DNA of 64,000 nucleotides, from IMG/VR virus record IMGVR_UViG_3300045988_110026; one strand, 5' to 3'. This stretch comes from a virus. The notes below the pieces were generated by a model. That model saw only the letters and a list, made by a program, of their open reading frames with translations. It was not told the origin of the DNA and did no database searches. Positions 52,764 to 63,975 of this stretch are shown one piece after another (the first letter of the stretch is position 1; each line of letters begins with the position of its first letter). The position numbers and the translations under genes are program-made.

Positions 52764-52973
52764 TTATATCTTCCGTACTCTTTTTTTCGTATCATTCAAG
52801 ATTTCAAAAACCATCTTCTTGTGATCTTTGTTTGGTAACTTGTCTTTAACGGCCGATATTACACCCGCTATAGACGTAAAACCTGAATCTGTTATTGAAC
52901 ACAGCAATAATCCCCTTTCGTCGTCTGTGCTTATCGCTGACGCCTTTATAATATCATTCTTGTATATTCTCAT
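52764..52973 (-). CDS. hypothetical protein
   Basis: 69 aa. Confidence 0.4.
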   Translation of the reverse strand: MRIYKNDIIKASAISTDDERGLLLCSITDSGFTSIAGVISAVKDKLPNKDHKKMVFEILNDTKKRVRKI

Positions 52974-53379
52974 AATCTTTCGTTTTATTATCTACAAACT
53001 TATCCATATCGTCTCTTATTCTTTTTAGCACTCCGGCTATAATTTCCGGCATCTCTCCTTCGGTACGGTTCAGAGTTTCTATCACCCCATCAATCCTACC
53101 AATTTGACGCCATAAGAAATTGGCGTCTTTCGTATTAAATTTCCCCATCATGTTTTTACAGTAAACAACTTGCTTTTTCAAACACCAGTCTTGCGATTCT
53201 GAGAGTGAACACCGTTCGGAGTCGTTAAAAAATATACAATCTTTGCAGAACATAAGAGGGTCTTCGTCGTCACCAACCACTTTGACATCATACTCTATGC
53301 CATGCAATTTTAATCTAAATACATCTCCTACTTCTTTAGAAGACAAATCCATGTCCGGACCGAATGTTATTACTTCCAT
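52954..53379 (-). CDS. hypothetical protein
   Basis: 141 aa. Confidence 0.45.
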   Translation of the reverse strand: MEVITFGPDMDLSSKEVGDVFRLKLHGIEYDVKVVGDDEDPLMFCKDCIFFNDSERCSLSESQDWCLKKQVVYCKNMMGKFNTKDANFLWRQIGRIDGVIETLNRTEGEMPEIIAGVLKRIRDDMDKFVDNKTKDYENIQE

Positions 53380-53883: not shown

Positions 53884-54225
53884 TTATGGTATTATTTGAC
53901 TGTATGCAGACTTTTCCATGTACACAACACTATGTTCCTGTCCAAGTATTTTCTTTGCTGCTTCTTTCTTTATCGCGCAATATCTCCCTGTACGATACGG
54001 ATTCTTTTGATCTGATCCATCCTCAACTTCGATAATAAAACAACCTCCGTCATCTATTATCTTTTTGCAATTGTCACATATTTCTCCCGTGCATATATGA
54101 TGCGGCGCCTGCCCTTTGATGTTATTCCCTAATAAAGCAATCCCCATCTCTTCACCGCATACTATGCATAGTTCTATGGATGGATTCAACCCATGCTCTG
54201 GATGCAATACAATACCGTCTTTCAT
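53884..54225 (-). CDS. Cys-rich zinc-binding protein
   Basis: CIVCG...CTGEICDNC. Confidence 0.45.
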   Translation of the reverse strand: MKDGIVLHPEHGLNPSIELCIVCGEEMGIALLGNNIKGQAPHHICTGEICDNCKKIIDDGGCFIIEVEDGSDQKNPYRTGRYCAIKKEAAKKILGQEHSVVYMEKSAYSQIIP

Positions 54226-54626
54226 TTTCTATCCTCCTTTATTAATTCTATTATAAACTTTTTATCTTGTTCCCACAATGGCAGCCCTTCTTTTACTGTG
54301 TATGCCACTGTTTCCCTCTCTCCTATTAATCGCACGGCAATCTCTCTTGCTTTCAAGTCATCCTCCTCATGCGATTTGTTTATTAAATCATAGGCACATG
54401 ATTCCACCTTTTGCCTTTCGATTATTATCGAACCCATTAACTCGCTTATATGCGATCCTAAAAACGATAAGACATTAATAGCTTTCCCAATATCATTTGA
54501 AATAGCACTTGCTAAATACATCTTATCCATATACTCCGGCAAAGCCTCGTATGCCGTTTCTATGTTTTTATACTGATTTTCGTTTACCTCCCTTTTAATC
54601 AGTTCTTCAAATTCTTCTTTTAACAT
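54222..54626 (-). CDS. hypothetical protein
   Basis: 134 aa. Confidence 0.45.
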   Translation of the reverse strand: MLKEEFEELIKREVNENQYKNIETAYEALPEYMDKMYLASAISNDIGKAINVLSFLGSHISELMGSIIIERQKVESCAYDLINKSHEEDDLKAREIAVRLIGERETVAYTVKEGLPLWEQDKKFIIELIKEDRK

Positions 54627-54650
54627 GTTCTTCCCTATTTTAATGTTGTG

Positions 54651-54730
54651 TGAGATCGCCGGAATCGAACCAGCCTACCGCACCATGAATCCCATAAAGC
54701 AAGTGCTCCGATCTTCGCAGATGGGAGCAC
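54651..54730 (-). tRNA. tRNA-like element B (T-arm GCTGG-TTCGATT-CCGGC) preceded by a 7-bp hairpin
   Basis: Minus-sense GTGCTCC-(14 nt)-GGAGCAC hairpin (54703-54730), then ~52 nt ending ...GCTGGTTCGATTCCGGCGATCTCA-CA. Not foldable by hand as a full tRNA. Confidence 0.35.
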
Positions 54731-54959
54731 TTTGTCTAAAGCATAAGAAAATTAATGAAGAAATTTTTCTCACTTACGCCATAGCATCTAAAATAGCTAT
54801 CAGCACTATTTCTATGACAAACATAATAGAAAATATCTTAAATGCCTTTTTCATATCGCTATCTCCTCCTTTTTTTTTTTTAGTTCCACAATAAACTGTT
54901 CCGGCTCTGCTCCGAACTACGTTCCACCTACAACCGCAGGCCTTAGCCCAAGGCGCCGC

Positions 54960-55220
54960 CTACTCCCCCTCTATGGCAGCCTGTTCGTACCTACAACACC
55001 AGTCTCCATCTATACAACTATTACTACGCGATAACAAACATTTATCCTTATAATAATCATAAAAAATACACCTCTCACAACTGTAATCCCTAATTTCTAC
55101 ACAGCTAACTACCTTAGCATATACTATACCATCACTGCCTTCTATTCCTTTCACCCCAAAAATAGAACCTTCTCCCTCCTTACTCAAATCTAAGTCAGGC
55201 GCAAAGTCATATACGTTCAT
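54960..55220 (-). CDS. hypothetical Cys-containing protein
   Basis: 86 aa. Confidence 0.45.
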   Translation of the reverse strand: MNVYDFAPDLDLSKEGEGSIFGVKGIEGSDGIVYAKVVSCVEIRDYSCERCIFYDYYKDKCLLSRSNSCIDGDWCCRYEQAAIEGE

Positions 55221-55294
55221 GTTGTTTATGTTTTAATTGTTATACATTCCGATTACTACTAATCTATAGAATATAGTTTTCAACTCTCAACCTA

Positions 55295-55462
55295 TTGAAT
55301 TTTGTAGAATAAACTCACATTATGCCGTTTTAAAGCACTGTAAGTCTTAATTTTGTAGGAAAACCCTACATAATGCTGTTTTAAAACGCTGATCTGTTGA
55401 ATTTTGTTGGCAGGAACTACATAACGCTGTTTTAAAACGCTGTAAGTCTTAATTTTGTGGGA
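55295..55462. repeat. tandem direct repeats, ~51-bp unit x ~3.3
   Basis: Units start at 55295, 55347, 55397 and 55449 (TTRAATTTTGTDG...ACATWAYGCYGTTTTAAARCRCTG...). Each holds a CGCTG-TTTTAAAA-CGCTG core. Confidence 0.7.
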
Positions 55463-55524
55463 AGGGAGTGCCCTCCCTCTCCCCCTCTCCAACTCCCGCT
55501 AATCCTCCGGCTTTCCGCATAGAA

Positions 55525-55656
55525 CCCACGCCCTACCGCCTCACTACCGGCATACGGAGAGCGCTACAAGCTTATACTCTGGCATGGAGTATGGGGGATT
55601 TGGAGATAATATCATTCCATAGAGAGAATAGAGAGCCTTCAGCCCACGCCCTACCG
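55525..55656. repeat. GC/pyrimidine-rich island with 14-bp direct repeat CCCACGCCCTACCG (55525-55538, 55643-55656)
   Basis: Local composition shifts sharply (CCCTCCCTCTCCCCCTCTCC at 55471-55490), and there is an exact 14-mer repeat 118 bp apart. Confidence 0.45.
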
Positions 55657-56154
55657 TCTGCTCCTCCTATCAAGATAGATATTCAAAACTATAATCAAAG
55701 CCAAAAACAAAAAGCAAAAGACCATCACAATATTATACTGATCTGGTCCGTACTCTAACATAGACCTTACTCCAACCGATAAAAAATACAGGTCAGCTAC
55801 TAATAAAAACCACCACATAAAATAAAAAATTTACAATAAGTATGTCCGAAAATACGGGTATTATAAAACCTAACTAATTGATAATCAAGCATACCTTATT
55901 TTTAAGAAAAATACAATAAGCCCAATTTTCAATCCATAGAGACGAAAAAGGCGGCATCCGACACCATATTTTGGGTCAGAAAACCGCCTACAGTTTCGTT
56001 TTAGACCAATTTTAACGACAATATATAGACAAAATACCGGCATTATATCCAAACAGCCTTATTTTTGTTTCGATTTGAACCAATATACGCATTCCTACCT
56101 TGTTTGTCGTCGTGTTCACTCTCAGAATATCCTACCCGTAAATAGAAAGAGTAG

Positions 56155-56197
56155 GATACAAAAATAGGGCTGCTCCGATATTCGAAACAACCCTATT
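56155..56197 (-). terminator. hairpin AATAGGG...CCCTATT, with a T-run on the minus strand
   Basis: read directly; downstream of minus gene 56203..56409. Confidence 0.45.
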
Positions 56198-56202
56198 CCT
56201 AT

Positions 56203-56409
56203 TTAAATACTGTTTATATTTTCCTTAACGTACGTTCTTGACGTATGAACTTTACGCTTGCACTTTTCTTTTCCGGTATCGGAATGATACGCCTCTTTGA
56301 GATCACGATACAACATAAATTCACGATACGCTCTTTTCCGCTTTTCTTTGGCTTCTTTCCTGGACAGACCGCGAACATCTACCATGTAAGATTTAAATTT
56401 CCTTTCCAT
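56203..56409 (-). CDS. small basic protein
   Basis: 68 aa, Lys/Arg-rich. Confidence 0.4.
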   Translation of the reverse strand: MERKFKSYMVDVRGLSRKEAKEKRKRAYREFMLYRDLKEAYHSDTGKEKCKRKVHTSRTYVKENINSI

Positions 56410-56431
56410 TTTCTTTATGCTTTAATTATGA

Positions 56432-56602
56432 TTAACCCCAGCGGTTAAGTGCTTCGATATAGAAACCTTCCGCCTCTTTGTACTCACTTTCGCTCAATGT
56501 TTCCACCGTCTCGATATAGTTACGCAATGTTATTTTTACGCAACTGTTTTTAGATTTATTGAACGCTTCAATTAAAGCGTTGATCATTGCTTTCTTTTCC
56601 AT
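56432..56602 (-). CDS. small hypothetical protein (56 aa, below ORF-track cutoff)
   Basis: Hand-translated MEKKAMINALIEAFNKSKNSCVKITLRNYIETVETLSESEYKEAEGFYIEALNRWG; sits 22 bp upstream of the next minus gene. Confidence 0.35.
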   Translation of the reverse strand: MEKKAMINALIEAFNKSKNSCVKITLRNYIETVETLSESEYKEAEGFYIEALNRWG

Positions 56603-56627
56603 GCTATTATATTATTTATAATTTAGA

Positions 56628-56688
56628 GGTTGCTCCGGAATCGAACCGGACGCGCATTCCTATCCTATAGAGATTTTATGCTACAACC
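56628..56688 (-). tRNA. tRNA-like element C (61 nt between acceptor-like halves; T-arm TCCGG-TTCGATT-CCGGA)
   Basis: Minus-sense GGTTGTAGCATAAAATCTCTATAGGATAGGAATGCGCGTCCGGTTCGATTCCGGAGCAACC-TCTA. Shares AAAATCTC with the tRNA-Cys anticodon region but appears to lack a D-arm. Confidence 0.35.
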
Positions 56689-57161
56689 AACAGCCCGTAA
56701 TTAGTACGTAGTTCTTGCGTACAGGCTCGTACTATGTTGTTATTATATTTTCCGTCCGCTACACAACTTAGCCACAAATAAAGGCGATTGTGTCCTTGCG
56801 TTTTGATACGGCACGTCCCTACATGGTAGGCTACATGCTTGTACCCTGTAATTTAATCTACAGCCTTGTTCTATTTTTCGTGTAAGCAAGTAAGACACGT
56901 TTCGATCTGGAGATAAACCTCGTACAACGGCATGTTTTCCAAACTGTAATCACATACCTAACATAAACCATACCTATTCGGATAGTCCATGCAGTAATAC
57001 CAGCCCTTTAATTGCCAACGGCAAGGGCAACGGTATATCTATCTCCAATATGTAAAATAACTCTCTGTTTTGTCAGCTTCAGTCTAAAGCATACGCGGGA
57101 CGTGCACCCACCAACAACGGCGCACAGACGCGTTTAAAGGTACGCGCCCAACCTTGTTTTT

Positions 57162-57764: not shown

Positions 57765-57927
57765 TTACAGATACATATATAGCCAGCCCAACGGGCACAC
57801 TATATAGGATCACTATGTTAACTCGTAATCTCTCTCGATCACGACGCAAATATACGACATTTATCAATATTACATATATATATGCTATATTTTTTTTGTT
57901 AACTTGTATTAATTTCGATTCTATTAT

Positions 57928-58076
57928 CTGATTATCAGTAAGTTACAAAAAACACAAGAGCAGTATTACACGCGTACATTAATATGTAGGATATATTCTT
58001 ATTTAAGTGGCTTATAATCAATAGGTTATAATAACACATTGATTATCAATAATTTAAATAAGTGATTGATAATCAG
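57928..58076. promoter_or_regulatory. cluster of TTGATWATCAA-type palindromes (57928-57938 CTGATTATCAG; 58039-58049 TTGATTATCAA; 58065-58076 TTGATAATCAG)
   Basis: Read directly. A fourth perfect copy, TTGATAATCAA, is at 55878-55888. Confidence 0.45.
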
Positions 58077-58097
58077 AGAGTTTGTGGGTTTGAGGTA

Positions 58098-58149
58098 AAA
58101 CGCGTTTCCGGTTTTCCAGCGAAGGGGGTGCGGGGGAGAAAACGCGTTT
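58098..58149. repeat. two copies of AAAACGCGTTTC(C)GG (palindromic core AAACGCGTTT) 42 bp apart
   Basis: 58098-58107 and 58140-58149. Confidence 0.45.
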
Positions 58150-58181
58150 CGGGGGCGGGAGGTTCGTGATAGGTACCCCCT

Positions 58182-58262
58182 CTCTCCCATCACATAAACC
58201 TCTTTCTCATATCTCTCCCATCACATAAACATTTCACCATTCCTCTCCCTCATCACATAAAA
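58182..58262. repeat. three phased 18-bp iteron-like direct repeats CTCTCCCATCACATAAAC (starts 58182, 58213, 58243; the third has a 1-nt insertion)
   Basis: about 31-bp periodicity, read directly. Confidence 0.55.
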
Positions 58263-58310
58263 ATATGGGGAACCTATCCAAAGTTCCCCATACTTATTTT
58301 ACGACGGTAA

Positions 58311-63886: not shown

Positions 63887-63903
63887 TGTCTTACTTTTTT
63901 TAG

Positions 63904-63975
63904 AGGCTTGTGGCGGAATCGAACCGCCCTACGAGATTTTGCAGATCCCTGACTAAACCACTCATCCAACAAGCC
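63904..63975 (-). tRNA. tRNA-Cys (anticodon GCA), 72 nt, CCA not encoded
   Basis: Hand-folded. Acceptor GGCTTGT/ACAAGCC; D-arm with GG; anticodon stem GGGAT/ATCTC with loop CTGCAAA; T-arm GGCGG-TTCGATT-CCGCC; discriminator T. Confidence 0.75.

Follow-up and report, generated by a model that had tools for sequence, protein, structure and literature searches.

The DNA analysed here (the window) comprises 64,000 nt of the IMG/VR virus record IMGVR_UViG_3300045988_110026, and the element in question is a short GC-rich island lying between two small genes near position 55,500. The window belongs to an epsilon crAss-like phage of the human gut and is, across this region, 88-89% identical to crAssE-Sib (OR575929, record name 'csAssE-Sib'), a 151-kb epsilon crAss-like phage whose source is human stool. 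All genes from ~12 kb to 62 kb, including helicase, exonuclease, and DnaB-like replication genes, are carried by the minus strand, and every entry between 52 and 59 kb in the list of open reading frames (ORFs) lies on that strand. A gene for a protein of 55 amino acids (aa) and, downstream of it, a gene for an 86-aa protein bracket the island together with an adjoining tandem array of 51-bp units (Table 1). The island is predicted to sit in the first inward-reading unit from the right end of the virion DNA.

An earlier note on this DNA, made by a model that ran no database searches, had described a flip in composition directly after the tandem array and an exact 14-bp direct repeat with copies 118 bp apart, and both descriptions hold. 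GC content is 55.9% at 55458-55670 as against 37.8% in the whole window; in windows of 100 nt it reaches 0.60 at 55450-55549 and 0.56 at 55500-55599, compared with 0.25-0.40 on both sides. The left 103 nt of the island are 63% GC and, on the plus strand, 62% pyrimidine, and the island starts exactly at the end of the array (55458). The 14-mer CCCACGCCCTACCG occurs exactly twice in the window, with no other site at two or fewer mismatches; its chance expectation is 0.05, two matches were found in none of 100 shuffles, and if one mismatch is allowed the repeat reaches 17 nt.

The claim that this stretch is non-coding stands for 55459-55650, where all six frames are closed, and fails for 55651-55700, which is coding sequence of the 55-aa gene. 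Stop-codon reassignment is known in some crAss-like phages; the minus frame that continues the 55-aa ORF runs in turn into TAG, TGA, TGA, TAG, and TAA, and reassigning TAG or TGA alone does not rescue it. The two ORFs that had been predicted here, and thought implausible in composition, are spurious: 55468..55758 on the plus strand is broken by 8- and 14-nt indels in relatives, and 55292..55492 on the minus strand is merely the open frame of the 51-nt (17-codon) repeat unit. With the frames closed and the 8- and 14-nt indels not multiples of three, we reject the island as a protein-coding gene. Of 66 unique relatives, 64 keep the 55-aa ORF intact and at exactly this length, the substitutions being conservative, and nucleotide diversity at its three codon positions (computed, like all diversity values given here, over 40 unique genomes) is 0.064, 0.011, and 0.153; the corresponding values for the 86-aa gene are 0.034, 0.029, and 0.066. 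The 55-aa protein has no match to a Pfam or PHROG family. Both flanking genes are real genes of the minus strand: 55651-55818 encodes a membrane protein, and the island is its 3' untranslated region (UTR).

Relatives were collected by several scans. An exact-pattern scan of IMG/VR gave 45 contigs with both 14-mers, a sample biased towards the repeat; a scan for the array motif gave 42 contigs; and a scan from a phosphodiesterase gene 3 kb from the island, which samples relatives independently of the repeat, gave 161, and 80 of these were kept. A metagenome scan added 91 further true island copies. True matches from the phosphodiesterase, array-motif, and metagenome searches constitute one genus at ~85-95% identity, the full-length island matches all close relatives (nhmmer, at least 250 bits), and among GenBank phages only crAssE-Sib carries it. 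One locus whose phosphodiesterase is 36% identical (L179) differs in synteny and is without the island, and a profile search of the window gave no second island copy. The island is single-copy, specific to one genus, and matches no described family. Within the genus it is present in 99 of 99 relatives whose loci span both flanks (flank spacing 469-876 nt, a range explained by array copy number); the earlier note had named lack of conservation as grounds for dismissing the region, and the region is kept throughout these relatives.

Constraint on the island is moderate. Diversity is 0.068 in the island core. Third codon positions of the flanking genes have values of 0.066-0.153, the range at first and second positions is 0.002-0.064, and values of 0.21-0.24 belong to the tandem array (0.24) and the spacer on its left side. 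The core is almost without indels, and the CT-rich tract and the array vary freely in length, the former by indels of 6, 8, 12, and 14 nt. Few columns of the A/G-rich spacer vary among 80 unique sequences, and 55603-55656 forms a long invariant block. The diversity of the core, taken with its near-absence of indels, argues for moderate purifying selection; this indicates a constraint less extreme than the first, repeat-biased sample implied.

The 14-mer repeat is statistically real, and we infer that it is a lineage-specific by-product that is not functional in itself. In the unbiased loci, obtained via the neighbouring gene, both copies are exact in 20/55, one is exact in 29/55, and none in 6/55. 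Copy 1 is dimorphic: the commonest form in other lineages is TGCGCTCT-CGG, with five differences within 11 nt, and further variants include TGCGCTCTCGG, the hybrid TGCGCTCTACCG, and similar forms. In its alternative form, copy 1 makes a perfect 8-bp inverted repeat with GAGAGCGC (55557-55564). Clustered multi-base differences that create perfect direct or inverted repeats are a signature of template switching or gene conversion (quasi-palindrome correction), and the clustered differences and hybrids at copy 1 thus point to a product of such events and not to a conserved feature. Copy 2 is almost invariant, as would be expected of a gene end.

The evidence for a structured RNA comes from the core. 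On the minus strand, the RNAalifold consensus of the core is a predicted four-way junction formed by helices P1 to P4 (Table 1), with an energy of -24.2 kcal/mol as against -14.7 +/- 3.1 kcal/mol for column shuffles within conservation classes (n=200). The z-score is -3.1, 1 of the 200 shuffles did as well, and the structure conservation index (SCI) is 0.70. For the plus strand the values are -1.3 kcal/mol, z = +1.65, and SCI 0.04, so that the consensus-fold signal is strand-specific. Standard pairs make up 99.0% of pair cells among 108 unique variants from 202 loci; pair 55588/55494 is U-A in 37 of these variants, U-G in 50, and C-G in 20; and P3 pairing is kept in nearly all copy-1 variants (98% of P3 cells). 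Double-sided changes occupy 13 cells in an 80-sequence alignment, compared with 3.3 in the shuffle control (1/500).

Table 1. Features of the island and its surroundings (window coordinates).
Feature	Position	Strand	Remarks
Gene downstream of the island, 86 aa	54960-55220	-	From the ORF list; paralogue of the N-terminal part of 52954-53379(-)
51-bp tandem array (variable-number tandem repeat, VNTR 1)	55298-55458		TRF period 51, 3.2 copies; left of the island
Island proper, ~190 nt	55459-55650		Non-coding in all frames; single-copy
CT-rich tract, variable length	55459-55492	-	GA/G-rich on the minus strand; GC hairpin GGGAGAGGGAG-GGCA-CUCCCUUCCC without a U-tract after it
Island core, 114 nt	55488-55601	-	Predicted four-way junction (RNAalifold consensus)
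Predicted helix P1	55586-55594 with 55489-55496	-	CCA-U-ACUCC pairs with GGAGUUGG
Predicted helix P2	55582-55585 with 55574-55577	-	Short hairpin, stacked on P1
Predicted helix P3	55550-55564 with 55528-55544	-	Long arm; its 3' strand is repeat copy 1
Predicted helix P4	55517-55526 with 55501-55511	-	Fourth arm
14-mer copy 1	55525-55538	+	Equals the 3' strand of P3 on the minus strand; lineage-specific
A/G-rich spacer, nearly invariant	55602-55650	-	Plus strand GAGATAATATCATTCCATAGAGAGAATAGAGAGCCTTCAG; holds ATAGAGAG twice; weak hairpin and U-rich tail directly after the stop
14-mer copy 2	55643-55656	+	Overlaps the TAG stop and the last codons of the 55-aa gene; almost invariant
55-aa protein gene	55651-55818	-	Two hydrophobic helices, RRSRR tail; TAG stop at 55651-55653
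Sigma-70-like promoter, TTGATT-17-TATAAT	55860-55888	-	Scan score 10/12; upstream of the 55-aa gene
27-nt inverted repeat	56045-56071 and 56155-56181		81% complementary, 83 nt apart; brackets ~56121

This makes the core fold suggestive, not established, and a number of results weigh against it. The single-sequence stability of the core is unremarkable (z = +0.67), the whole island folds no better as a single sequence than its shuffles do (minus strand, z = -0.11; plus strand, z = -0.99), and the consensus for the whole island is marginal (minus strand, z = -1.3 with 20 sequences and -2.0 with 80; plus strand, z = +1.4). Several sub-windows and both strands were tried, which takes the p of ~0.005 to ~0.04 when corrected. 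Only one pair has frequent double-sided covariation; most of the support for the fold consists of G-U-tolerant transitions in a G/U-rich strand; the aligned sequences are closely related (88% mean identity); and a strand-symmetric fold test without G-U pairs gives no consistent strand bias. In addition, the perfect P3 stem of one lineage can be obtained by quasi-palindrome correction at the DNA level without selection, the fold test does not separate RNA from single-stranded DNA of the same strand, and no convincing terminator bounds the island.

A structured non-coding RNA was one of the identities that the earlier note had offered, and it fares unevenly: the minus-strand consensus fold of the core beats 199 of 200 shuffles, whereas whole-island folds are not significant and there is no match to Rfam or to a tRNA. 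Across the whole window no Rfam family matches at its gathering score; at E <= 10, the stretch 54500-56300 yields three chance-level matches (18-21 bits, compared with gathering scores of 62-90), none of them in the core. ARAGORN reports no tRNA or transfer-messenger RNA (tmRNA) at the island, its sole gene in the window being tRNA-Cys at 63903-63975(-), and the arm sizes of the predicted four-way junction are unlike those of a tRNA.

These results also bear on the view that the island has no specific function and is a remnant in decay, left for instance by gene 3' ends that had been duplicated, that looks conserved since the relatives are close and owes its repeats to template switching. Its diversity is not far below that of third codon positions and similar to that of nearby non-coding DNA; it is confined to one genus; copy 1 exists in two forms and in hybrids; on a reading of the sequence, the surroundings of the 17-mer look like the 3' ends of the two flanking genes, TAG being followed by GGCG...GGGCT; and the thermodynamic z-scores are weak. 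Such a remnant would not, however, be expected to keep its core in every one of the 99 relatives almost without indels while both flanks vary in length, to hold a GC content of 56-63% in a 38% GC genome with no decay towards genomic composition, to give a consensus-fold signal specific to the minus strand, or to contain long invariant blocks such as 55603-55656. We consider a functionless remnant unlikely, if not markedly so.

The reading we favour, at somewhat less than an even chance, is that the island is a transcribed minus-sense spacer or 3'-UTR RNA element. It is an untranslated spacer between two co-directional genes (55818->55651, 55 aa, and 55220->54960, 86 aa); it would be transcribed in the minus sense, most likely from the promoter-like site 55888-55860, and would probably act as RNA, whether as a 3'-UTR element or as an intergenic one. 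The element would consist of a branched fold of ~105 nt (55489-55594), in which P1 closes over three hairpins, and then of a GC hairpin whose length varies (55459-55492). It might stabilise or process the early transcript, or give rise to a stable non-coding RNA. Transcription of the island, formation of the fold, and its function are what we infer on this reading.

Signals around the island fit this proposal in part. The -35 hexamer of the promoter-like site lies within the palindrome TTGATTATCAA, in a stretch identical in crAssE-Sib. Promoters of the Bacteroidetes type (TTTG...TAnnTTTG) are not enriched (6, with 3.7 expected), and the one such match on the minus strand, 55718->55684, falls inside the 55-aa gene and has a -7 box that is not conserved. 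The sole terminator candidate is a weak site of five pairs after the stop codon (55645->55633, minus strand); the letters after the hairpin at 55459-55492 are ACAAAAUU on the minus strand and CCUCUCC on the plus strand, so that this hairpin does not form an intrinsic terminator. Compared with stem-loop stabilisers of 3' UTRs and with small RNAs derived from 3' UTRs, the island likewise stands directly after a stop codon, in the sense of the upstream gene, with GC-rich hairpins in an AT-rich genome; it differs in that no U-tract terminator or defined 3' end was found and in that a four-way junction is atypical of that class.

The nearest parallel comes from the one transcriptome study of a cultured relative, the crAss-like phage phi14:2, in which two long intergenic regions (g004-g006) in the first 5 kb of the record give very abundant early non-coding RNAs (10.1101/2020.03.07.982082). 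In the phi14:2 record, which is annotated as circular, these regions are placed ~3-4.6 kb from the start; their transcription runs rightward and is seen from the first time point on (10.1101/2020.03.07.982082). Both they and the island are long untranslated intergenic stretches of crAss-like phages with a virion RNA polymerase, in both GC is raised over the flanks with small tandem repeats nearby, and the unit holding the island reads inward from the predicted end, the island lying 470-660 bp from that end and downstream of the first minus-strand promoter-like site. The two differ in size (~1.7 kb in phi14:2; ~0.2 kb for the island, or 0.4 kb with the array) and share no sequence similarity, nhmmer and BLAST placing the island in one genus only. 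Expression has been measured in phi14:2 and is predicted for the island. A bolder and rather improbable version of the favoured reading has the island encode a structured RNA of a kind not described before, in which a G-rich hairpin accompanies a ~105-nt four-way junction. This RNA would be made from the leading genome end right after DNA entry, as the functional counterpart of the phi14:2 early non-coding RNAs, and would take part in host takeover or control the neighbouring small membrane protein.

Should the island prove to be a conserved RNA element of the phi14:2 kind, its 114-nt core would give a well-delimited candidate from an uncultured lineage, with helices that can be tested. Should it be a spacer and no more, then a real small gene, two hypervariable arrays that break assemblies, and a likely genome end have been told apart, which aids annotation and assembly.

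The small membrane protein invites comparison with type I toxin-antitoxin systems, in which case the 55-aa protein would be a toxin and the island a 3'-UTR overlap with a convergent plus-sense antisense RNA starting from the last array unit. As in txpA/RatA and bsrG/SR4 of Bacillus, a gene for a small, conserved hydrophobic protein (here with a basic tail) is followed by a long, conserved, GC-rich 3' UTR, and in the window a plus-strand TAATTTTG box of the Bacteroidetes -7 consensus (TAnnTTTG) lies immediately left of the island at 55449-55456. In most relatives, however, this box reads TGAATTTTG, which departs from TAnnTTTG, and its lack of conservation weakens the idea of a plus-sense transcript. 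Neither a -33 TTTG partner nor a plus-strand terminator was found, and thus no conserved antisense promoter or terminator was identified; the plus strand has no consensus fold; and the 55-aa protein has two helices in place of the one usual in type I toxins. We regard a toxin-antitoxin arrangement as highly doubtful.

The tandem array raises a different possibility, namely that island and array together act at the DNA level as a protein-binding region, whether a replication origin, a partition or centromere-like array, or an array of operators or promoters that serves the early genes downstream. Each 51-bp unit consists of ~36 conserved nt and a variable, hairpin-like segment of 15 nt, and carries the 10-bp palindrome GTTTTAAAAC. 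Short direct repeats abound in the region (TCAWTCCATAGAGA twice, ATAGAGAG twice, and the 17-mer), it is situated within ~0.5-0.8 kb of the predicted end and heads the block of replication genes, and a second locus with an array, a GC-rich island, and palindromes occurs at 57927-58262. F sopC is made of tandem 43-bp units, each with an inverted repeat, and the palindrome-bearing direct-repeat array beside a GC-rich block near the head of the replication block recalls it, as well as iteron origins such as RK2 oriV and lambda ori. In prototypic crAssphage, moreover, origins have been predicted at the start of the replication block (PMC10983915), which would accord with such an assignment here.

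Against a DNA element of this kind, the array has from 0 to 15 units in relatives (by count of the AATTTTG unit motif) and is the most variable sequence of the region, which is unusual for an essential origin. Its 51-bp period is far from the 17-22 bp typical of iterons, period and copy range alike being unlike known iterons, and the island itself has none. No DnaA-box-like site was found in 54532-56767, no adjacent initiator, ParB-like, or other partition gene was identified (the neighbouring proteins being without family assignment), and the strand-specific fold signal is left unexplained. On the whole we hold a DNA-level element to be unlikely.

The 51-bp repeats were also considered as a CRISPR (clustered regularly interspaced short palindromic repeats) array or mini-array, an idea rejected because units of ~36 conserved and 15 variable nt differ from constant 28-37-nt repeats with unique spacers of at least 26 nt between them. 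The period corresponds to 17 codons, and in most relatives one minus-strand frame is open all through the array, the longest open frame being on that strand in 118 of 125; we judge this open frame a probable by-product of the repeat and a repeat peptide less likely.

The second locus (57927-58262) is of similar make-up. It contains three to four copies of the palindrome TTGATTATCAA at 57927-58082; a 60% GC block with G5 runs and two copies of AAAACGCGTTTC at 58090-58180; and three copies of TCTCTCCCATCACATAAAC at 58181-58262, relatives reaching 6-9 or more units of ~31 nt. Metagenomic contigs break at this locus too.

Ends of contigs and loci cluster at both places, 65 at 55300-55550 and 46 at 58000-58300, and no such cluster is seen at 56100-56150. 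In the 58000-58300 cluster, contigs run out inside expanded tandem repeats (TTTATGTGATGGGAGAGA..., units of ~31 nt in 6-9 or more copies). We reject both clusters as physical termini; they are assembly breaks at variable tandem arrays.

An indication of the genome end comes from crAssE-Sib, base 1 of whose record was set by its authors with PhageTerm (p = 1.5e-22; PMC11054128). That base aligns to ~56121 of the window, ~470 bp to the right of the island and 465 bp beyond repeat copy 2, a placement that comes from a relative at 88% identity and not from reads of the window genome. The position is bracketed by a 27-nt inverted repeat and lies just after a hairpin and T-run that, on inspection of the letters, trail the upstream gene 56203-56409(-). 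The 70 nt between the arms of the inverted repeat are the least conserved part of the region. From the sequence, 56045-56181 is a candidate packaging cut site.

The earlier note had also suggested a packaging signal, and on that view the small terminase would bind the island, or its 14-mers, within a pac or cos region. Repeated short motifs are typical of sites bound by TerS (P1 pac, SPP1 pacL/pacR), and the island has such motifs, lies ~0.5 kb from the PhageTerm-predicted genome start of a close relative, and has many metagenomic contigs ending at its left margin; it shares with P1 pac, SPP1 pacL-pacC-pacR, and lambda cos the character of a repeat-rich non-coding region near a predicted terminus. 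The predicted terminus, however, is 465-660 bp off, between the arms of an inverted repeat of its own; the contig ends gathered at 55300-55550 are due to the array and have their twin at 58000-58300; and the repeat motif is not conserved in the genus, copy 1 being absent from most relatives and exact in only 20 of the 55 unbiased loci. A packaging role for the island is very improbable.

The last of the suggested identities, a recombination (att) site, finds no support as a site-specific one: a host scan with one exact 19-mer gave no match beyond chance to a host sequence, and no empty site exists in 99 of 99 relatives. The clustered differences at copy 1 do resemble a product of template switching or gene conversion. 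The host scan covered 185,579 species genomes and gave 10 chance matches and one mis-binned phage contig, and diverged copies could escape it; the contig in question (3.9 kb, binned as 'Veillonella sp.') is 87% identical to the phage over 1.6 kb. Nothing here points to the island having come from a host, serving as an att site, or being mobile. Two further candidates were rejected, namely a mobile element bounded by the 15-nt inverted repeat 55269-55283 / 55682-55696 (0 empty sites in 99 loci) and the template and variable repeat (TR/VR) pair of a diversity-generating retroelement (no second island copy in the window).

Other features of the neighbourhood may merit attention in their own right. 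Downstream of the island, the 134-aa ORF 54222-54626(-) has diversities of only 0.002, 0.005, and 0.007 by codon position, where third positions of its neighbours stand at 0.07-0.15; this suggests a recent sweep or recombination, or else constraint at the nucleotide level. Just upstream of its start lies a GC-rich structured element at 54640-54745(-), with a fold z-score of -3.1, in which a long hairpin with a GCGA tetraloop comes first, and then a T-arm like that of a tRNA (GCUGG-UUCGAUU-CCGGC) and a 3' strand of acceptor type. In the T-stem, CU is replaced by UC against GG between the window and crAssE-Sib with pairing kept; neither ARAGORN nor Rfam recognises the element. A second tRNA-like T-arm motif, CCGG-UUCGAUU-CCGG followed by AGCAACC, occurs at 56630-56720(-), where ARAGORN gives no match and Rfam none at E <= 1; it is situated inside a GC-richer non-coding stretch of ~550 nt (56603-57161) with no credible ORF.

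A 26-aa hydrophobic ORF at 54774-54854(-) (MKKAFKIFSIMFVIEIVLIAILDAMA) has a strong Shine-Dalgarno sequence, GGAGGAG, 6 nt upstream, unlike most neighbouring genes. Some relatives carry a TnpB gene (OrfB_IS605 / Cas12f-like) among the small early genes (L177, 15896-17035; L178, 16002-17141), the insertion lying ~2.6 kb past the island along the minus strand, that is, towards lower window coordinates; the window is without TnpB at the corresponding place. Finally, two more short direct repeats occur in terminus-proximal non-coding DNA: TCAWTCCATAGAGA at 55612-55625 and 55929-55942, 317 bp apart, and TAARAAAWWTACAATAAG at 55823-55840 and 55903-55920, 80 bp apart.

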